A stretch of 33,615 bases of DNA, taken from the IMG/VR virus record IMGVR_UViG_2563366821_000007; one strand, given 5' to 3'. Shown piece after piece: positions 2,679 through 19,995 of the stretch (position 1 is the first letter of the stretch; each line of letters starts with the position of its first letter). Origin of the DNA: a virus (lineage: Duplodnaviria > Heunggongvirae > Uroviricota > Caudoviricetes). A program made the translations under genes and the position numbers. The notes beneath the pieces are model-generated. The model worked only from the letters and a program-made list of their open reading frames with translations. It did not search any database and was not told the DNA's origin.

Positions 2679-3190
2679 GCTGCGTTTCCTTCTTTCTTAT
2701 TAACAATTACACCGTCATATATTTCATTAAGGTGTCCTCTTAGCTCCATGCGCCTTAATGCAGATAACATGTAATCGCATTCAACCTGCTTATTCCCAGT
2801 AAATGGCTTATCGTCAGAATTACCCCAACAGCAATTACCCCTGGGCCATCCATGTACTTTCCGTACTCTTCCGTTAACAACGTGAAGTAATCCCCAGCCG
2901 GGAGGTAAATCCTCAACTGAAATAATTTCCGGCTCACTAATAAAGAATCGCCAGTCGCCCATGCCAAGTGAGGGATTTTTACGGAAACGCTTTTTTCTAT
3001 CTGCCAACAAGTCAGCACGAGAACACTTCGCCTCTATCAGGCATGATGCTGAATTTCTGAATCCCATAGCATCTGGCTGTTCTCCGGTACTGGTTACAGC
3101 AACAAAGCGGTCATGAAAGCAAACCTTGAACCCGTTGCGCTTAAGGAACTTGTACGCAATCTGACAGAGTTCGTGGTGTGTTAACGCCAT
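2675..3190 (-). CDS. Hypothetical protein with PD-(D/E)xK-like nuclease motif
   Basis: Start reset to ATG 3188-3190 (MALTHHEL...), preceded by the conserved AAAGGAGAGTGAT junction; contains QPDAMGF...LIEAKCS resembling a PD-x(n)-E-x-K nuclease core. Function is inferred from the motif only. Confidence 0.5.
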   Translation of the reverse strand: MALTHHELCQIAYKFLKRNGFKVCFHDRFVAVTSTGEQPDAMGFRNSASCLIEAKCSRADLLADRKKRFRKNPSLGMGDWRFFISEPEIISVEDLPPGWGLLHVVNGRVRKVHGWPRGNCCWGNSDDKPFTGNKQVECDYMLSALRRMELRGHLNEIYDGVIVNKKEGNAA

Positions 3191-8530: not shown

Positions 8531-9050
8531 AAAAAGAGCGGTACCAGCCGGAAGCAAGTGTACAAACTGGTACCGCCAAAGCAGTGGCTGTTGTGGTGGG
8601 GTTGTCACTCAGGCGTATGGTCAACCTGACAACCCGGTGTCCTCAACGGGGAAAGAGTAACCCCGCCATACTTACCGCCGCGCCATTTCGCGGATTACCA
8701 CAACGCTGAGAGCACTTAGCCAGTTACGGCACCACACTTTGTCGCGGTTCCATAAATGCCCTCATCGTTGCACCCTGGTCTCTTCCCAGGCGTCAAACCG
8801 AATCGCCACGCTGGTTAGGCGTCTTATCAGCATCCTCATTGACTTGCACATTCCGGCTATCTGGTTTGTTTGCCCGAGCAAGGAGTGGATTGTCCCCTTT
8901 AACGTCCCCAGACCGCTAACGACGCATGTGCCATACGCCGTGTTACAACCAAATTTTGTTAGTACCTTGTTTGTAGGTCTGGAGAGAAAGATAAAATGAA
9001 GTTGCGCATTATGCAAGTGTTTTATTGCGAGATAAGCAATTTGGTGGGTA

Positions 9051-9073
9051 ATGAAAAGCCACCTTCTGGTGGC
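9051..9073 (-). terminator. Rho-independent terminator downstream of the cI-like gene
   Basis: GCCACC-TTCT-GGTGGC hairpin (9058-9073); on the minus strand it is followed by a U-rich tract (UUUUCAUU); sits 23 bp after the cI stop. Confidence 0.5.
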
Positions 9074-9095
9074 TAATTGATGTTGAGGTAGGGGG

Positions 9096-9788
9096 TTAAT
9101 TGTGTCGCTTAAGGGTCTGTGACTGACTGATTAAGACCTTTCCAAAGACCATAAACCGGTGTTCGTTTTCGCTGGTAATTCCCCATTCGCGGTAAATCTG
9201 ATTATCAGAAATTACCAGCAGTTTATCAGGTATCATTTGCAGTCGTTTGACGTAAATTTTATCATCAAAACCAAATACATATATACCATCCCCATCAAAC
9301 TGATTGATACTGATATCAACGAAGATGAGATCTCCTGGCTCAATGGTTGGACACATACTGTCCCCACGAACGTTGATAACTTTAATGTGATTTGCTGGTC
9401 GTCCACCAAACATCGATACAGCATTATCAGTTCTGTATTCAATGGCATGAATCACATCAATGACATCACCGCCCTGGATAAGGCCATTTCCCGCACTGGC
9501 ACTGACATCCAGCATTTCAATACGGAATACATCCTTCACCTGCGTAACATCCTCACTAATACTGTTTTTACATACAGTATTACTTTTGAGGTCTGAGGTA
9601 AAGAGATCAGCAATATCAACACCTAAGCTCCTGGCAATATTACTCAGGGCTTGTTCAGTGAATTGTTTCTGCTTACCTGTTTCGAGGCGCGAGATATTCG
9701 CCGCATCCACTCCTATTGCTTCAGCGAGATCGGCGATTTTCATGTTCTTCGCCTGGCGAAGTTGTCTGACTCGATTTCCTATGTTCAT
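9096..9788 (-). CDS. cI: CI-type prophage repressor (HTH_XRE N-terminus, S24 LexA-like peptidase C-terminus)
   Basis: 230 aa; N-terminal helix-turn-helix (IADLAEAIGVDAANISRLETGK); C-terminal S24 signature with catalytic Ser in GDSMCPT and Lys in YVKRL; divergent from a cro-like gene. Confidence 0.85.
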   Translation of the reverse strand: MNIGNRVRQLRQAKNMKIADLAEAIGVDAANISRLETGKQKQFTEQALSNIARSLGVDIADLFTSDLKSNTVCKNSISEDVTQVKDVFRIEMLDVSASAGNGLIQGGDVIDVIHAIEYRTDNAVSMFGGRPANHIKVINVRGDSMCPTIEPGDLIFVDISINQFDGDGIYVFGFDDKIYVKRLQMIPDKLLVISDNQIYREWGITSENEHRFMVFGKVLISQSQTLKRHN

Positions 9789-9808: not shown

Positions 9809-9871
9809 TTGCGCGTTAAGCAAATCAACTTGCGCAAAATATTTGCGTGAAATAATATGCTCATCACGCAA
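9809..9871. promoter_or_regulatory. Divergent immunity promoter/operator region (OR-like)
   Basis: Between cI and cro starts: repeated TTGCGY half-sites (TTGCGCGTTAAGCAA at 9809-9823, TTGCGCAAAATATTTGCGTGA at 9830-9850) and palindromic TTGCGTGA...TCACGCAA (to 9871); AT-rich spacers fit -10 elements. Confidence 0.5.
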
Positions 9872-10146: not shown

Positions 10147-10696
10147 GCATCATTGGAAAGTGGAAAAACAACCTGAGTGGTACGTGAAAGCTGTCAGAAA
10201 AACTATCGCGGCATTGCCTGGGGGTTACGCTGAAGCTGCTGACTGGCTGGATGTAACAGAGAACGCTTTATTCAACCGCCTTCGTGCAGATGGCGATCAG
10301 ATTTTCCCGCTGGGATGGGCAATGGTTTTACAGCGCGCGGCTGGCACTCACTACATTGCGGATGCTGTCGCACAATCTGCTGGTGGGGTGTTCGTATCGC
10401 TTCCTGAAATTGAGGAAGTAGAGAACGCCGATATAAACCAGCGCCTGCTGGAAGTCATCGAACAGATCGGGAATTACTCAAGGCAGATTCGTTCGGCAAT
10501 CGAAGATGGGGTCGTGGAGCCACACGAGCAGACAGCAATTAATGATGAGTTGTATCTGTCAATTTCGAAGCTCCAGGAGCATGCAGCACTGGTCTACAAA
10601 ATCTTTTGCGCTCCAGAAAAGAGTGACGCCCGCGAGTGTGCAGCTCCGGGCGTCGTGGCGTCGATTGCTTCTGGTTGTGGAGAAACTAACGCATGA
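10139..10696 (+). CDS. Putative CII-family phage regulatory protein
   Basis: 185 aa; GTG start after AGGAGG, overlapping cro end; position (third gene of the right operon) and the ALFNRLRADGDQIFPLGWAMVLQRAAGTHY segment recall phage regulatory CII-family proteins; identity not verified. Confidence 0.4.
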   Translation: MGKHHWKVEKQPEWYVKAVRKTIAALPGGYAEAADWLDVTENALFNRLRADGDQIFPLGWAMVLQRAAGTHYIADAVAQSAGGVFVSLPEIEEVENADINQRLLEVIEQIGNYSRQIRSAIEDGVVEPHEQTAINDELYLSISKLQEHAALVYKIFCAPEKSDARECAAPGVVASIASGCGETNA

Positions 10697-11841
10697 ACAG
10701 TTTAACGGCAAATAACCGTTTGTCGCAACAGCTGGTGGTCAGCGTCGCTGAACACCTGTTGTTACGGCATGAATGCAGATTACCAAATCACCTGGCTGTA
10801 AGTAACCACAGAGAACTTTACCTGACTGTGGGGGGCGAGTTGTGCAGGAACTTAACCGCTGGTTTCGTGACGGAAGAGGACTTTATGTTCATGTTATTCG
10901 TTGGGAGCCAGAAACACAGCGCGTTATCTATCTTCGCAAAGACTACCAGCATGAGTGCTTTAGTCCTTTGTGGAAATTCAGGCGTGATTTTGTTGAGTGT
11001 GAAGGACCACCAGCACATTGATTCTGCCATTCCGGGACGTTACACTGTTCAGGCACCTTATAAAGCGGGTGTCGGGATTGGCGTCCTGGAATTGCATACG
11101 GCGACAATTGGCGCGTTAGCGTCTTTTTTGTTGCTACAACTCAGCTATACCCAAATTATGGTGGGCTGGGTGGGGGCACCGAAAGGTGCGCCGGTTTCCG
11201 TATGCGCCGGTTACGCCAACCCTGCTCAGTTCACCACCAGCGAAATTGGCGTTTCCGGTGGTGGAAGTTATCCATTGCATACGGAGGCTGCCATCATGGC
11301 TACGATCCCAACCCTCACTCAACCTGAAATTGCCATCGTTGATGGTCAGGCTGTTACTTCATCCCTGGCTGTTGCCAACTTCTTCTCCAAACGTCATGAC
11401 GATGTACTGAAAAAGATCCGCACGCTTGAATGTTCCGCATCATTCACTGCCCGCAATTTTTCGGTGAGTGATTACACCGATTGCACAGGCCGCAAACTAC
11501 CTTGCTATCAAATAACCCGCGACGGCTTTGCGTTTCTTGCTATGGGTTTCACGGGTAAACGTGCTGCCCAGTTCAAAGAGGCATACATCAATGCCTTTAA
11601 CCAGATGGAGAAACAGCTTTCAAAGCCCGCTGTACCGAGCGACGTTGCACATAACGCCAGCGTTCTCTATTCCTACATTTCATCAATTCATCAGGTCTGG
11701 CTGCAGCAGCTTTATCCTATGTTGGCAAAAGCCGAATCTCCGCTGGCTGTTAGCTTGTATGACTATATTAATGATGCTTCGGCGCTGGCCTGCCTCATAA
11801 ATTTGTCGCTGAATCCTTCAGAGGTAAGGGGGCGTAAATGA
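10693..11841 (+). CDS. Rha-family phage regulatory protein (N-terminal extent uncertain)
   Basis: Rha-like signature GQAVTSSLAVANFFSKRHDDVLKKIRTL begins after ATG 11296 (GGAGG 8 nt upstream). The track frame is open from ATG 10693 (ATGA-coupled to the CII-like stop), but the upstream 600 nt contains an overlapping 59-codon alternative frame (10842..11021) and a terminator-like hairpin (11110-11129). Confidence 0.55.
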   Translation: MNSLTANNRLSQQLVVSVAEHLLLRHECRLPNHLAVSNHRELYLTVGGELCRNLTAGFVTEEDFMFMLFVGSQKHSALSIFAKTTSMSALVLCGNSGVILLSVKDHQHIDSAIPGRYTVQAPYKAGVGIGVLELHTATIGALASFLLLQLSYTQIMVGWVGAPKGAPVSVCAGYANPAQFTTSEIGVSGGGSYPLHTEAAIMATIPTLTQPEIAIVDGQAVTSSLAVANFFSKRHDDVLKKIRTLECSASFTARNFSVSDYTDCTGRKLPCYQITRDGFAFLAMGFTGKRAAQFKEAYINAFNQMEKQLSKPAVPSDVAHNASVLYSYISSIHQVWLQQLYPMLAKAESPLAVSLYDYINDASALACLINLSLNPSEVRGRK

Positions 11842-12719
11842 TCCGGAATATTTTCAAACTGTTTACCAATCGCCACCAGCATATTGATTCTGCAATTCCG
11901 GGACGTTACACTGTTCAGGCACCTTATAAAGCGGGTGCCGGGATTGGCGTCCTGAAATTGTCAACGGCGATGTATGACGCGCCAGCGTCTTTTTTATCGT
12001 CCGCATTTGCTCACATCCAGATTATGGTGGGCTGGGCGGGGGCACCGAAAGGTGCGCCGGTCTCCGTTGACGCCGGTTACGCCAACCCCGTCCAGTTCAC
12101 CACCAGTGAAATTGGCGTTTCCGGTGGTGGAAGTTTTTCACTGTCAACGGAGGCTGCCATCATGGCTACGATCCCAGCCCTCACTCAACCTGAAATCACC
12201 ATTGACAACGGCCAGGCCGTTACCACTTCTTTGGCTGTTGCCAACTTCTTCTCCAAGCGTCACGACGATGTGCTGAAAAAGATCCGCACTCTGGATTGTT
12301 CCCCTGAGTTTTGTGCCCGCAATTTTGCGGAGACATCGATTTCGGTAAATCAACCGAACGGTGGTACACGCAAGCTCCTTTGCTATCAAATCACACGAGA
12401 CGGTTTTGCGTTTCTTGCTATGGGTTTCACGGGTAAACGTGCTGCCCGGTTCAAAGAGGCATACATCAATGCCTTTAACCAGATGGAAAAACTGCTTTCA
12501 AAGCCATCCACGCTGAGCGATGCCGCAGATAACGCCAGCGTGCTTTACTCCCACCTGTCGGTAATCCACAAGGTCTGGCTGCAGCAGCTTTATCCCATGT
12601 TGGCAAAAGCCGAATCCCCGCTGGCTGTAAGTCTGTATGACCGCATCAACGACGCGGCGCTACTGGCCAGTCTCATAAATTTGTCGCTGAACCCTTCAGA
12701 GGTAAGGGGGCGTAAATGA
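11838..12719 (+). CDS. Rha-family phage regulatory protein (tandem paralog)
   Basis: 293 aa; ATG overlaps the upstream stop (ATGA); C-terminal 185 aa paralogous to 11296..11841 (Rha-like motif GQAVTTSLAVANFFSKRHDDVLKKIRTL); 5' 320 nt conserved with the upstream copy; alternative start ATG 12162. Confidence 0.6.
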   Translation: MIRNIFKLFTNRHQHIDSAIPGRYTVQAPYKAGAGIGVLKLSTAMYDAPASFLSSAFAHIQIMVGWAGAPKGAPVSVDAGYANPVQFTTSEIGVSGGGSFSLSTEAAIMATIPALTQPEITIDNGQAVTTSLAVANFFSKRHDDVLKKIRTLDCSPEFCARNFAETSISVNQPNGGTRKLLCYQITRDGFAFLAMGFTGKRAARFKEAYINAFNQMEKLLSKPSTLSDAADNASVLYSHLSVIHKVWLQQLYPMLAKAESPLAVSLYDRINDAALLASLINLSLNPSEVRGRK

Positions 12720-13757: not shown

Positions 13758-14246
13758 ATGAGTCTTTTGAATGAAGTTCAGAAATTCATTGAAGCCCATC
13801 CGGGCTGTACTTCCGGAGACATTGCGGATGCTTTTGCTGGTTACTCACGGCAGCGCGTTCTGCAGTCAGCAAGCAAGTTACGTCAGAGTGGGCGTGTGGC
13901 TCACCGTTGTGAAGGAGATACACGCAGACATTTCCCACGCCTGACTGAGAGAGCGCAGGATCCGGAACCACAACCAGTTCGTGAAACCAGACCTGTGCGC
14001 AATTTCTATGTCGGCACTAACGATCCCCGTGTGATTTTGTGCCTGACCCGCCAGGCTGAAGAACTGGAGTCCAGGGGCTTATACCGTCGTGCTGCAACGG
14101 TGTGGATGGCGGCATTCCGTGAAAGCCACTCCCAGCCAGAACGAAACAATTTTCTGGCACGTCGTGAGCGGTGCTTACGGAAAAGCAGCAAGCGCGCTGC
14201 ATCGGGTGAAGAGTGGTATCTGTCAGGGAATTTCGTGGGGGCTTAA
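13758..14246 (+). CDS. PerC/Pch-like transcriptional regulator (putative)
   Basis: Start placed at ATG 13758 (MSLLNEV...) 6 nt after GGGGG; C-terminal GLYRRAATVWMAAFRESH...RRERC resembles the PerC-family core motif (GLWRRAA.RW...RRR.C); N-terminal 80 aa unassigned. Confidence 0.4.
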   Translation: MSLLNEVQKFIEAHPGCTSGDIADAFAGYSRQRVLQSASKLRQSGRVAHRCEGDTRRHFPRLTERAQDPEPQPVRETRPVRNFYVGTNDPRVILCLTRQAEELESRGLYRRAATVWMAAFRESHSQPERNNFLARRERCLRKSSKRAASGEEWYLSGNFVGA

Positions 14247-14899
14247 TGAGTAATAAATATTGCCAGGCGCTGGTGGAACTGCGGAACAAACCAGCCCATG
14301 AACTGAAGGAAGTGGGCGATCAGTGGCGCACGCCGGACAACATTTTCTGGGGAATTAACACCCTGTTTGGCCCGTTTGTTCTGGATCTGTTCACTGACGG
14401 TGATAACGCCAAATGTGCTGCGTATTACACGGCGGAAGACAACGCGCTGGCGCATGACTGGTCTGAACGTCTTGCGGAGCTTAAAGGTGCTGCCTTTGGT
14501 AATCCCCCGTACAGCCGCGCCAGTCAGCATGAGGGGCAATACATCACCGGCATGCGTTACATCATGAAACATGCCAGTGCCATGCGTGATAAAGGCGGGC
14601 GCTATGTTTTCCTGATCAAAGCTGCCACCAGCGAAGTGTGGTGGCCGGAAGATGCAGATCATATTGCTTTTATTCGCGGGCGTATTGGTTTTGAACTGCC
14701 TGCCTGGTTTATCCCGAAAGACGAAAAGCAGGTGCCAACAGGTGCTTTCTTCGCTGGTGCTATTGCTGTTTTCGACAAGACCTGGAAGGGACCGGCAATC
14801 AGCTACATAGGGCGCGATGAACTTGAGGCATGTGGTGAGGCGTTTCTGGCGCAGGTTCGCCAGCAGGCGGAAAAACTGGTCAGGGAGATGGCGGCATGA
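14246..14899 (+). CDS. Phage DNA N6-adenine methyltransferase (Dam-like)
   Basis: Start at ATG 14246 (MSNKYCQALVELRN...); contains the NPPY catalytic motif (FGNPPYS); size and nin-region position typical of phage Dam family. Confidence 0.75.
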   Translation: MSNKYCQALVELRNKPAHELKEVGDQWRTPDNIFWGINTLFGPFVLDLFTDGDNAKCAAYYTAEDNALAHDWSERLAELKGAAFGNPPYSRASQHEGQYITGMRYIMKHASAMRDKGGRYVFLIKAATSEVWWPEDADHIAFIRGRIGFELPAWFIPKDEKQVPTGAFFAGAIAVFDKTWKGPAISYIGRDELEACGEAFLAQVRQQAEKLVREMAA

Positions 14900-15222
14900 C
14901 GACGTTAACTCAATGCCAGCAGCAGGTGCTGGATATGCTGATTTCTTATCAGAAAGAACGTGGCTTCCCGCCAACCAATCAGGAGGTGGCAACCATGCTG
15001 GGATACCGTTCGGTGAATGCAGCGGTGGAGCATCTTCGCGCACTGGAGAAAAAAGGCGTCATCACGATAAAGCGTGGCGTGGCCCGGGGGATAACGCTTC
15101 ATACTGCGATGAAGGACGACGACAGCGAGGCGGTCGGGATTATCCGCGCACTGCTTGCCGGTGAGGAAAACGCAAGGCTGCGTGCAACCCACTGGTTACA
15201 TGAGAGGGGCCTGAAAGTATGA
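14896..15222 (+). CDS. LexA N-terminal DNA-binding-domain homolog lacking the S24 peptidase domain
   Basis: 108 aa; LTQCQQQVLDMLISYQKERGFPPTNQEVATMLGYRSVNAAVEHLRALEKKGVITIKRGVARGITL aligns by eye with E. coli LexA residues ~5-70 ([65 protein letters not shown]); the protein ends about 40 aa later with no Ser/Lys protease module. Confidence 0.7.
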   Translation: MTTLTQCQQQVLDMLISYQKERGFPPTNQEVATMLGYRSVNAAVEHLRALEKKGVITIKRGVARGITLHTAMKDDDSEAVGIIRALLAGEENARLRATHWLHERGLKV

Positions 15223-15614
15223 AGCTAATACTGCCTTTTCCGCCCAGCGTGAACACGTACTGGCGACACCCCAACAAAGGGGCGTTTGCTGGTAAGAGCC
15301 TGATAAGCGCGGCGGGGCGAAAATTCCAGAGCGCGGCGTGTGCAGCAATAGTTGAGCAGTTACGTCGTCTGCCGAAACCAACGTCGGCACCTGCTTCAGT
15401 GGAGATCGTGTTGTTTCCTCCGGATAACCGGATCCGCGATCTGGACAACTATAACAAGGCGCTGTTTGACGCCCTGACCCACGCGGGTGTGTGGGAAGAC
15501 GACAGTCAGGTGAAAAGAATGCTGGTGGAGTGGGGACCGGTTATCCCGGAGGGGAAGGTCGAGATCACTATCAGTAAGTACGAAAAAGCGAGTTGCAAAT
15601 TAGCAACTCGGTAA
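15219..15614 (+). CDS. rusA: RusA-family Holliday junction resolvase
   Basis: 131 aa; LPFPPSVNTYW and IRDLDNYNKALFDALTHAGVWEDDSQV match the RusA signature (catalytic Asp cluster DLDN). Confidence 0.8.
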   Translation: MKLILPFPPSVNTYWRHPNKGAFAGKSLISAAGRKFQSAACAAIVEQLRRLPKPTSAPASVEIVLFPPDNRIRDLDNYNKALFDALTHAGVWEDDSQVKRMLVEWGPVIPEGKVEITISKYEKASCKLATR

Positions 15615-15659
15615 CGGAATTGAGCAACACCCTAAATTTGGGTATTACCTCGTTAAAGA

Positions 15660-15679
15660 TACTGTATTTATGAACAGTG
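15660..15679. promoter_or_regulatory. LexA-type SOS box
   Basis: TACTGTATTTATGAACAGTG fits CTGT-N8-ACAG with an AT-rich spacer; lies about 100 bp upstream of the KilA-N gene and 45 bp after RusA. Confidence 0.6.
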
Positions 15680-15776
15680 TATCCTTGATAACTATTAAAA
15701 ATCGCAGTAAGTTCATCCTGCATCAACGAAAAGGGAGTGCAGTCCCGCTCGTGGATAAAAATTTGTGGAGAAACCA

Positions 15777-16592
15777 ATGAATCAGTTGCTTGTAATTGAT
15801 GGCGTTTCTGTGCGCCAGTACTTCGAATCTAACTACTGTCTTAACGACCTTCAGAAAGCAGCTCTTCTTGCCGCTGGTGAGAATCGCTCCTCCCGTTCGC
15901 TGGAAGTTCACGAGTTTATGCGTCGTCCTGAAACGAAGGCTCTTGTGGAATTATTGGAAGAAGAAACTACGGGAGATTCCCGTAGTATTCCTGTCATCAC
16001 CATTCAGGGGCGCAATGGTGGGACGTATGTCTGTAAAGAGCTGGTCTATGCATATGCAATGTGGATCAGCCCGGCATTCAGCTTAAAAGTGATACGTACT
16101 TTTGATGCGCTTCATAATTCATCACCAGAAGAAACCACATCCGACAAAATTAAATCCGGGGTCATTCTGCTTGAATCAGCAGCAAAGACTCTAAATCTGT
16201 CAAACTCCTCGAAACTTGGTGCATACCAGAAATTATCAAAGGTAGCTGGTCTTCCTGAACTTATGCCGATCTATGCCATTGATGCACCTGCTGATGCGCC
16301 AGATGGTTCAAGCCGCCCTACGCTGTCGCTGAGTGCACTGCTGAAGCAGTATGGTATCCGCCTGACGGCTAATCAGGCATATCACCAGATGGCGAAGCTG
16401 GGGATCGTTGAACAACGCGAACGATACAGCCGTACCGCGATTAACAACATCAAAAAATTCTGGTCGCTGACCGCGAAAGGCTGCATGTTCGGCAAGAACA
16501 TCACCAGTCCTGCAAATCCGCGCGAGACGCAGCCGCATTTCTTCGAATCCCGATTTCCTGAGCTGTTAAAGCTGCTCGATACCGTTCATTGA
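15777..16592 (+). CDS. KilA-N domain protein (antirepressor-like)
   Basis: Start at ATG 15777 with GGAG 6 nt upstream; N-terminal KilA-N pattern (GTYVCKELVYAYAMWISPAFSLKVIRTFD); preceded by the SOS box. Confidence 0.7.
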   Translation: MNQLLVIDGVSVRQYFESNYCLNDLQKAALLAAGENRSSRSLEVHEFMRRPETKALVELLEEETTGDSRSIPVITIQGRNGGTYVCKELVYAYAMWISPAFSLKVIRTFDALHNSSPEETTSDKIKSGVILLESAAKTLNLSNSSKLGAYQKLSKVAGLPELMPIYAIDAPADAPDGSSRPTLSLSALLKQYGIRLTANQAYHQMAKLGIVEQRERYSRTAINNIKKFWSLTAKGCMFGKNITSPANPRETQPHFFESRFPELLKLLDTVH

Positions 16593-19281: not shown

Positions 19282-19995
19282 ATGGCTGTTGTCTGTTCAG
19301 TTATCATGGTTTGCTCCCCAATTAATATTTTTCTTGAAAAGGATACGTTGTCACTTAAGCCAGGCTCAGTTGTTCTGGCCACCAAATGCATCAGGGAGCT
19401 TTTCCTTATGCATTATGGCAAAGTTAAAATTGTCGATATAAGCGAATCCGTCGTAAGTCAATATCTGGAAAGTCAGCATAAGCTGACGAGGACTCGTCTG
19501 ACTGACATTCCGCTTTACCTGTTGCTGGAACCCAACAATCCTGCGTTGGCTGCGGCTTTAATTACCAGCCAGGGATTTTCCGGAGAGGCCACGGATATGT
19601 TTCTTATGATGGCCTGCCTGTCTCTGTTTGAAACAGATGAACGGATGTCATTGTTTTTAAGTGGATGTTTATCCAGCATAAGTGCCAAAGTCAGGGCGAT
19701 AATTCAGACAGATATATCAGCAAGCTGGACGCTTGGTGCGATTGCTCTACAGTTGCATATGAGTGAGAGTTTGTTAAAGACAAAACTGAAAAATGAAGGG
19801 GGCATGTTCAGTCGCTTGTTGCTGGAAGAGCGGATGCGTGTTGCTGTAAATATGTTATGTTCCCGGCATGGATATGGACAGGCTATAGCAGAAAAATGCG
19901 GTTATTCAAGCAGGTCCTACTTTATTTCTGTATTTCACCGCTATTATGGCTTCCCGCCAGACAGATATGTATCCAGGCAAGGGCTTGATTATTGA
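19282..19995 (+). CDS. AraC-family transcriptional regulator
   Basis: 237 aa; C-terminal dual HTH_AraC signature (WTLGAIALQLHMSESLLKTKLK... and GYGQAIAEKCGYSSRSYFISVFHRYYGFPP); AT-rich relative to phage backbone. Confidence 0.75.
   Translation: MAVVCSVIMVCSPINIFLEKDTLSLKPGSVVLATKCIRELFLMHYGKVKIVDISESVVSQYLESQHKLTRTRLTDIPLYLLLEPNNPALAAALITSQGFSGEATDMFLMMACLSLFETDERMSLFLSGCLSSISAKVRAIIQTDISASWTLGAIALQLHMSESLLKTKLKNEGGMFSRLLLEERMRVAVNMLCSRHGYGQAIAEKCGYSSRSYFISVFHRYYGFPPDRYVSRQGLDY

Follow-up and report, generated by a model that had tools for sequence, protein, structure and literature searches.

A LexA-derived protein without a protease domain and a neighbouring SOS box in a lambdoid prophage

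The DNA described here is a lambdoid prophage of 33,615 nucleotides (IMG/VR record IMGVR_UViG_2563366821_000007), which will be hereafter referred to as the window. It carries a gene for a 108-residue LexA-like protein (the lexA-like gene) and, further downstream, a site that fits the SOS box bound by LexA. Here, we find that the gene and the box are independent modules and that their adjacency is incidental. The gene is common. The box is a rare, lineage-specific addition, which travels with one allele of the gene that follows it, kilA-N, and not with the lexA-like gene. With moderate confidence, we read the locus as two independent neighbours: a LexA-derived, non-cleavable early regulator, which would likely have an operator of its own, and an operator for the LexA of the host, which would make one kilA-N allele inducible by the SOS response. 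Taken singly, the elements are all ordinary representatives of known kinds. The elements of the locus are the following.

14213..14899, plus strand: phage N6-adenine methyltransferase of the Dam family (PF05869, E 1.1e-45), the variable upstream neighbour of the lexA-like gene.
14896..15222, plus strand: LexA-family winged-helix protein of 108 amino acids (PF01726), with an ATG start and GGAG 9 nucleotides (nt) upstream.
15219..15614, plus strand: RusA Holliday-junction resolvase (PF05866, E 6.4e-15), the invariant downstream partner, with a 4-nt overlap.
15660-15679, no strand: SOS (LexA) box TACTGTATTTATGAACAGTG, an exact CTGT-N8-ACAG, 21.7 bits.
15777..16592, plus strand: KilA-N domain protein of 271 amino acids (PF04383, E 1.3e-15).

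Results

Structure of the LexA-like protein

The first-pass annotation of the window had described the open reading frame 14896..15222 as a LexA DNA-binding-domain homologue that lacks the protease, and this description holds; the coordinates that it gave, including a box 440 bp past the lexA-like gene, are all correct. The Pfam model LexA_DNA_bind (PF01726) matches residues 1-65 over its whole length (profile positions 1-65 of 65) with an E-value of 2.9e-19 and 69 bits, the cut-off being 23.7. No Peptidase_S24 domain was found in the 108 residues by Pfam search, there is no Ser/Lys dyad, and no S24 domain is hidden downstream of the gene, since the next open reading frame encodes RusA. The lexA equivalog model TIGR00498 is matched at its positions 1-91 of 203 only and, with 70.4 bits, the match stays below the curated cut-off of 110.95. 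In a phmmer search of the PDB, residues 2-70 align with residues 2-70 of E. coli LexA (1lea, 3jso; E about 1e-15), the recognition-helix region SVNAAVEHLRAL being aligned with its E. coli LexA counterpart.

The predicted structure agrees with this homology. The AlphaFold2 model of the monomer, which has a predicted local distance difference test (pLDDT) of 84 and a predicted template modelling score (pTM) of 0.57, shows the three helices and the two-stranded wing of LexA at residues 6-68, and it superposes on DNA-bound LexA (3jso) with a root mean square deviation of 0.9 Å over 68 residues, at 50% identity. According to the model, the protein can be described as composed of three parts.

Residues 1-68: LexA-type DNA-binding domain.
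Residues 71-75: flexible linker, modelled with low confidence.
Residues 75-103: two-helix hairpin, made of helices 75-88 and 93-103.

The length of the tail and its pattern EA..IIRALLAGE..A..RA..WL...G are preserved in relatives at 40-50% identity. The gene appears to be under purifying selection, with a conserved tail motif; its non-synonymous and synonymous polymorphism against orthologues (pN and pS) are about 0.35 and 0.7, so that non-synonymous change is roughly half of synonymous change. Judging from the model, the C-terminal helical hairpin may be the protein's own dimerisation module. Within the tail, the segment LLAGEE aligns with VAAGEP of LexA, which contains the Ala-Gly cleavage site. 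Close relatives have Asn or Lys in place of the Gly, distant relatives have lost the motif, and the segment is predicted to be helical by AlphaFold2. We do not count it as an Ala-Gly autocleavage site; it is at most a vestige of the LexA cleavage site.

Family and synteny of the lexA-like gene

Over its full length, the protein matches PHROG 362, annotated as 'transcriptional repressor' (E 1.2e-59). The lexA-like gene of the window is an ordinary member of this family, common and already annotated. GenBank and the Prokaryotic Genome Annotation Pipeline label such genes 'LexA DNA binding domain protein', 'LexA family transcriptional regulator' or 'repressor, lexA family', and annotated copies are found in phages SfII, SfIV, mEp460 and PhiR49_1 and in phages encoding the Shiga toxins (Stx) Stx2a, Stx2c and Stx2k. 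The gene is present in 2233 of 5426 complete E. coli genomes (about 41%), at 2855 places. A literature search turned up no functional study of this enterobacterial LexA-like family.

As read from the sequence, an ATGA overlap joins the stop codon of dam to the start of the lexA-like gene, and the stop of the latter is joined to the start of rusA in the same way. Because its start and stop overlap dam and rusA, the lexA-like gene forms part of the early-right operon and lacks a separate promoter region. The rusA gene follows directly, with the same 4-nt overlap, in members at 44-50% identity and in prophages of Citrobacter, Kluyvera, Leclercia and Kosakonia. The slot before the lexA-like gene is variable and holds Dam, another methylase or a replication gene; the slot after rusA, also variable, holds KilA-N or Rha/ANT. 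Apart from this family, metagenomic proteins of 140-330 amino acids (P0132, P0133, P0147, P0153, P0154, P0155 and P0161) have a tandem pair of LexA_DNA_bind domains without S24.

The SOS box and its distribution

The site at 15660-15679 had been proposed as an SOS box, and the score is in keeping with this. We used a matrix of our own, a reconstruction and not a curated one, based on 21 E. coli boxes known from the literature, in which the training boxes score 12.9-27.0 bits; the 21.7 bits of the site lie within the range of these real boxes. The best site per shuffle, over 200 shuffles of the window, averages 11.5 bits and reaches at most 17.7 bits. The pattern CTGT-N8-ACAG occurs three times in the window, against 0.40 expected. 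The box is located 98 nt upstream of the kilA-N ATG, in the nin region and outside the immunity region.

The 201-nt stretch 15600-15800 is found in PhiR49_1, in SfIV and in 186 E. coli genomes (204 places), and it always lies between rusA and the same kilA-N allele. The box is retained in every spacer variant from E. coli and Shigella, with a G-to-A change that gives ...ACAGTA (23.8 bits) in SfIV and AZ187. In AZ187, which is the most divergent copy (90% identity), nine substitutions fall outside the box, and the only one inside, from ...ACAGTG to ...ACAGTA, makes a better palindrome.

That the gene and the box work as a pair, as the first-pass annotation supposed, is not borne out by these counts, the box spacer being found in 186 genomes and the gene in 2233. 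Every copy of the box that was examined has the lexA-like gene upstream, but the gene without the box is about 14 times commoner than the gene with it. In the SfII, Stx2k, Stx2c and Stx2a phages, about 20 nt without the box separate rusA from the kilA-N gene behind it, and orthologues at 44-50% identity show the order lexA-like gene, rusA and antirepressor-type gene, again without it. Six other genera carry the same kilA-N lineage; none of the six has the box and five have the lexA-like gene. Degenerate relatives of the box can be noticed at the rusA stop codon in Kluyvera and Kosakonia (7.7 and 9.4 bits), with 15 of 20 positions shared. In IMG/VR, 64 loci share this cI and extend over the nin region; 63 of them carry the gene and only nine carry the box, each time together with the 99-100% kilA-N allele. 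These loci, retrieved by CI, are 99-100% identical copies and are informative on co-occurrence, not on divergence.

The recognition helix

The DNA contacts of LexA are taken here from secondary citations. They are reported to be Ser39, Asn41, Ala42, Glu44 and Glu45 (PMC3091678), along with a motif Arg52-Lys53-Gly54 (PMC8607333). The 108-residue protein retains Ser39, Asn41, Ala42, Glu45, Lys53, Gly54 and the wing RGI, and it has Val at position 44, Lys at position 52 and Asn at LexA position 28, which is Arg28 in LexA. Four of the five residues in the base-contact set (Ser39, Asn41, Ala42, Glu44 and Glu45) are thus kept. Position 44 is Glu in 12 of the 13 full-length LexAs recovered by exhaustive search; in all tail-bearing members of the family it is Val, Ala, Thr, Phe or Tyr, and Glu in none. 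Among Enterobacterales phages, positions 44-46 read VEH, ADH, TAH, ATV, RDT, FEH or AEH, and the hosts of these phages share one SOS box.

If selection had kept the protein on the SOS boxes of the host, positions 44-46 would be expected to vary as little as they do in LexA. The variability of helix 3, together with a dimerisation module that differs from that of LexA, favours a drifted or phage-specific operator over conserved mimicry of the SOS box. Of the non-cleavable LexA mimic suggested earlier, the absence of a protease domain stands, while the mimicry itself is weakened by the change of Glu44 to Val and by the variable positions 44-46.

Origin of the spacer

The spacer between rusA and kilA-N contains the following features in addition to the box.

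15586..15659, plus strand: mosaic scar with two palindromes that are otherwise located inside kilA-N, one of the SfII type (15589-15610) and one of the ST64B type (15629-15645).
15620-15648, plus strand: weaker promoter candidate TTGAGC-N17-TATTAC, 6.05 bits in our own matrix.
15685..15713, plus strand: best guess for a sigma-70 promoter, TTGATA-N17-TAAGTT, 9.25 bits in our own matrix.
15727..15751, plus strand: leader hairpin CGA-AAA-GGGA-GTGCAG-TCCC-GC-TCG, 25-50 nt upstream of the kilA-N ATG.

The gap between rusA and kilA-N is 17-20 nt in SfII, Stx2k and ST64B, against 162 nt in the window. Frame 3 of 15586..15659 reads SELQISNSVTELSNTLNLGITSLKILYL, followed by a stop codon. In a blastn comparison, 27 nt of this segment match nt 150-176 of SfII kilA-N at 92.6% (E 1.3e-6), and 17 nt match nt 229-245 of ST64B kilA-N at 94%. 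The left part of the spacer, as these alignments indicate, is the scar of an older kilA-N. The final nine or so codons of rusA differ from the SfII allele when the C-termini are compared. The right part is homologous to the rusA end, the leader and the kilA-N gene of a lineage found in Citrobacter, Kluyvera, Pantoea, Leclercia and Kosakonia, and in one further enterobacterial contig (locus L097), whose KilA-N protein is also listed by NCBI from Cedecea davisae; within this lineage, KilA-N identity is 72-80%. As the spacer is composite and the relatives have no box, the box is an acquisition specific to its lineage, at or near a recombination joint.

Alleles of kilA-N bear different perfect palindromes with 9-bp arms, in the same variable loop of the KilA-N domain. 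The three palindromes are ACTACGGGA-GAT-TCCCGTAGT, CGAGTTGCA-GATT-TGCAACTCG and GATACCCAA-AAT-TTGGGTATC, with sites at 15966-15986, 15589-15610 and 15629-15645 in the window, at 3066-3088 in locus L001 and at 14796-14817 in locus L007. Two of the three are copied in the rusA/kilA-N spacer of the window, and two resemble intrinsic terminators on the minus strand. We considered and rejected these palindromes as operators of the LexA-like protein, because the proteins of the window and of SfII are near-identical while their palindromes differ, and because ST64B has a palindrome without the gene.

A strict consensus promoter scan of 15400-15900 gave no promoter, and in the matrix scan 33 positions of the window reach 8 bits or more. 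Relative to the two candidates, both of them weak, the box would lie at about -60 to -41 (15685..15713) or at about +6 to +25 (15620-15648). No strong plus-strand terminator was found between kilA-N and the antiterminator gene Q, so that a spacer promoter could also feed Q. An SOS-induced antisense small RNA, running from the box to the minus-strand terminator-like hairpin 15610-15589, was considered and discarded, as no minus-strand promoter exceeds 6.5 bits.

The KilA-N protein and its leader

The gene after the box encodes a KilA-N domain, as the first-pass annotation had it, and its start at 15777 is backed by a GGAG that is conserved across genera. Three parts can be told apart in the protein, with KilA-N at the N-terminus, a helical stretch in the middle and an alpha/beta domain at the C-terminus, and it belongs to PHROG 129, 'transcriptional regulator' (E 4e-109). 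The annotation had further called it antirepressor-like. For this part, Pfam shows no ANT/KilAC domain and NCBIfam no match, and a Foldseek search of the PDB with the AlphaFold2 model (pLDDT 75.6) gave no match with E <0.4, which neither supports nor excludes an antirepressor role. Since Rha/ANT antirepressor-type genes occupy the kilA-N slot in distant phages, the name is a reasonable guess at most.

The position of the leader hairpin is shared by the relatives in the six other genera. Its loop GTGCAG is identical in five of them and is GTTGCAG in Kosakonia, while the stems vary, with GGGC/GCCC in Leclercia and TCAC/GTGA in Pantoea. The 216-nt leader has a folding z-score of -2.6. There is no U-run after the hairpin and no Rfam match to it; an Rfam scan of 14800-16200 gave no match at all.

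Layout of the window and a second SOS box in cI

The window is organised as a lambdoid prophage, in the order CI, a CII-like gene, two Rha/Ash genes, a replication gene and a PerC-like gene, followed by a plus-strand block of Dam, the lexA-like gene, RusA, the 162-nt spacer, KilA-N, a DUF968/HNH gene and the antiterminator Q. The two neighbouring paralogous genes between the CII-like and replication genes, 10693-11841 and 11838-12719, each encode Ash and Rha (PF10554 and PF09669). A PADLOC run gave weak or domain-level matches only. Two features belong to the immunity region.

9096-9788, minus strand: CI repressor, helix-turn-helix and Peptidase_S24 (S24 E 6e-19), with GDSM and KR motifs.
9560-9579, no strand: a further SOS box TACTGTTTTTACATACAGTA, stronger than the first, within the stretch of cI that codes for the linker and outside the coordinates of the first-pass annotation, 25.8 bits.

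The CI repressor is of the cleavable type, as had been stated before, with its helix-turn-helix and S24 domains. TTGC-N7-GCAA palindromes lie on both sides of cI (9002-9016, 9025-9039 and 9809-9823), with seven in the window against 1.5 expected, and those around cI probably serve as OL and OR, the operators of CI. A terminator-like hairpin on the minus strand, 9055-9078, is located between cI and OL.

The box inside cI is retained as CACTG[TG]-N8-ACAGTA or TACTGT-N8-ACAGTA in cI homologues at 69-76% nucleotide identity. The carriers are Salmonella ST64B, Klebsiella Kp4871-1, Citrobacter phiNP and E. coli phage Flotzy; locus L091 retains the box as well. Codon choices in the box are constant (ACT GTA ... 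C AGT), while the flanks and the protein sequence of the linker diverge. Outside the window, the box is found at 9468 in L007, 7696 in L008, 9364 in L009, 9462 in L010 and 836 in L091. No lexA-like gene lies within 9 kb of cI in the ST64B, Klebsiella, Citrobacter and Flotzy phages; L091 has one. The literature searched does not mention an SOS box inside cI. A truncated CI, made from an SOS promoter within cI, was considered and rejected, there being no conserved in-frame Met downstream. On the sense strand, TTTAC[CA]-N17-TACTGT is positionally conserved in five of six cI sequences, yet it coincides with conserved codons. This box may be of greater consequence. It points to a direct input of host LexA into the immunity region of a widespread cI family.

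Further sites were found in the window and in related phages. A marginal SOS-like site in the window, AAGTGGATGTTTATCCAGCA (19659-19678, 15.4 bits), falls within the range of the shuffles, lies inside an AraC-family gene (19282-19995) and is probably due to chance. A strong box at 1670-1689 in locus L017, and in 19 other IMG/VR loci, extends over the initial codons of a DNA methyltransferase gene in the late region. Others adjoin dinI-like and umuD-like accessory genes in phage Flotzy; the sites noted include 17360-17379 in L009 and 1646 and 2454 in L010. Predicted host-LexA boxes are frequent among these lambdoid phages, including relatives that lack the lexA-like gene.

Discussion

The reading that we prefer, that of two independent neighbours, can be put as follows. 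The 108-residue regulator would be derived from the N-terminal part of LexA, having kept the winged helix-turn-helix and lost the S24 protease and dimerisation domain, which would be replaced by a helical hairpin of about 35 residues, presumably an oligomerisation module of its own. The gene would be co-translated with dam and rusA from the early-right transcript (PR, nin region), so that the protein would be made in lytic growth or infection and would not be switched off by RecA-stimulated cleavage. It would bind a palindromic operator through helix 3. This operator is more likely phage-specific, or merely similar to a LexA box, than canonical, because the family has replaced Glu44 and often other residues of helix 3, and the spacing of its half-sites need not be N8, because the dimerisation module differs from that of LexA. 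The site at 15660-15679 would be an operator for the host's own LexA, located in a mosaic spacer of about 160 nt in one E. coli/Shigella lineage. It most likely places a spacer promoter under SOS control, in which case DNA damage would allow transcription of the kilA-N allele while the prophage is repressed, possibly together with the DUF968/HNH and Q genes downstream. Such control would follow the same logic as the Gifsy dinI-antirepressor operon.

Several observations weigh against this reading. No convincing promoter overlaps the box in the strict scan, in the scan with our own matrix or in the minus-strand scan. Beyond E. coli and Shigella the box lacks conservation, being absent or degenerate in the same kilA-N lineage of six other genera, and for this reason recombination could have produced it recently and without consequence for function. 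No operator for the LexA-like protein was found in the window; other spacings of the CTGT/ACAG half-sites are not enriched, and other 4-mer palindromes are unremarkable with the exception of TTGC-N7-GCAA, attributed to the CI operators. Dimerisation through the tail is read from a monomer model with a pTM of 0.57. Finally, the protein could bind SOS boxes after all, since four of five contacts, Lys53, Gly54 and the wing RGI are retained.

This last point leads to the explanation in which the protein is a non-cleavable surrogate of LexA, acting on canonical SOS boxes once host LexA has been cleaved, namely on those of the host regulon, of kilA-N and of cI, as a private brake on the SOS response. 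The 50% identity with E. coli LexA's DNA-binding domain and the close fit to DNA-bound LexA speak for it, as do the retained residues Ser39, Asn41, Ala42, Glu45, Lys53 and Gly54 with the wing, the absence of a cleavage domain, the position in an early lytic operon and the presence of two strong SOS boxes in the prophage. We nevertheless consider it unlikely, as Glu44 is found in no member, Arg28 is lost, helix 3 varies although the hosts share one SOS box, the gene is about 14 times commoner without the kilA-N box, and the cI box is present in phages without the gene. Equally doubtful is its extended form, in which an SOS-proof surrogate, dimerised through its tail, would retake the SOS boxes after the destruction of LexA, so that induced or infecting phages would silence the host SOS regulon again; LexA-controlled genes of rival prophages, colicins and defence systems would then also be silenced, together with the phage's own cI and kilA-N boxes. 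A chance origin of the box, as a product of the recombination that built the spacer and with no regulatory role even if LexA binds it, has a similarly low probability in our estimate. The spacer is the apparent scar of an older kilA-N allele, the stop codon of rusA in the Kluyvera type already offers 15 of the 20 positions, the box is absent from the six other genera, and no promoter overlaps it; yet its score matches that of real SOS boxes and is above all 200 shuffles, the module is kept in 186 genomes, and the sole internal substitution in AZ187 improves the palindrome while nine others fall outside.

The protein might instead bind DNA in order to assist RusA, or phage recombination or replication, and not be a transcription factor; it could, for example, target or modulate junction resolution. 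This is distinctly improbable. It is true that rusA is the sole invariant neighbour across 44-98% identity, always with the 4-nt overlap, and that a variable recognition helix fits loose sequence specificity, but nin-region genes overlap as a rule whatever their function, the rusA gene of Pantoea (L098) is preceded by an unrelated 156-residue gene, and RusA acts alone in known systems. The most remote of the alternatives, in our view, is an activator similar to gp6 of the Bacillus phage GIL01, which would bind at or beside 15660-15679 and turn on kilA-N and the downstream genes once LexA is gone. GIL01 gp6 activates from a site at -43.5 (PMC6182141), and the best promoter guess sets the box at -60 to -41, with its centre about 50 bp before the start, which is unusual for a repressor. 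That promoter guess is weak evidence, however; most carriers of the gene have no such site, read-through from PR already covers kilA-N in lytic growth, and there is no pairwise similarity to gp6.

The lexA-like gene is among the commonest E. coli prophage genes, and it is found in Stx-converting, Shigella serotype-converting and O104:H4 prophages. If the protein touches SOS boxes, it could alter the response of lysogens to DNA-damaging antibiotics, and hence the induction of prophages and of Shiga toxin. If it has its own operator, as in the reading of two neighbours, it would be an unrecognised regulator of the lambdoid early-right operon. The box, for its part, would illustrate how a LexA-controlled entry into early or late genes can be born at a recombination scar.

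Comparison with known systems

The DNA-binding part of the protein has the same winged helix-turn-helix as E. coli LexA (1LEA, 3JSO), over the 68 superposed residues described above. However, it differs from LexA by the lack of S24, by Val in place of Glu44 and Asn in place of Arg28, and by a helical hairpin instead of the linker and protease; its gene is carried by a phage, in one operon with dam and rusA. Compared with other members of PHROG 362 (SfII gp44, WP_000210151), nothing differs: they are of the same family, match over the full length and occupy the same position between dam and rusA. The KilA-N protein shares the N-terminal KilA-N domain with P1 KilA at 36.8% identity, while the C-terminal two thirds are unrelated and ANT/KilAC is missing from the protein of the window.

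LexA-controlled prophage loci include the dinI-gfoA/gftA operon of Gifsy-1/2/3, tum of phage 186 and antC of N15 (PMC3121763). Of these, the Gifsy operon is the nearest counterpart of the box. As in the Gifsy phages, a strong LexA box is located in a lambdoid nin region, after the replication genes, with a palindrome before it and a gene of regulator or antirepressor type after it. The product here is a 271-residue KilA-N protein and not a small antirepressor of the GfoA, Tum or AntC type. Moreover, the CI of the window has S24 and should cleave itself, in contrast to a non-self-cleaving repressor, although Fels-1 indicates that such a repressor is not strictly required for a LexA-controlled antirepressor module (PMC3121763). 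The box of the window is also confined to one lineage, and control by LexA is in this case predicted from the DNA alone.

The protein gp6 of the Bacillus tectivirus GIL01 is a truncated LexA homologue of 66 amino acids, which recognises a palindrome of its own and switches on the late promoter (PMC6182141). Like the protein described here, it is encoded by a phage, consists of LexA_DNA_bind (PF01726, E 7.9e-14 for gp6) without a protease, is made early, and acts alongside host LexA boxes. It differs in being a proven activator with the operator GaCACAnnTGTGaC (PMC6182141), in having no tail and in its length of 66 against 108 residues. A BLASTP comparison of the two proteins gave no alignment with E up to 100, and they are independent derivations, as no pairwise similarity is detectable. 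By analogy, gp6 is the nearest characterised counterpart of the 108-residue protein, and it offers a precedent in which a phage encodes a shortened LexA homologue whose specificity has changed.

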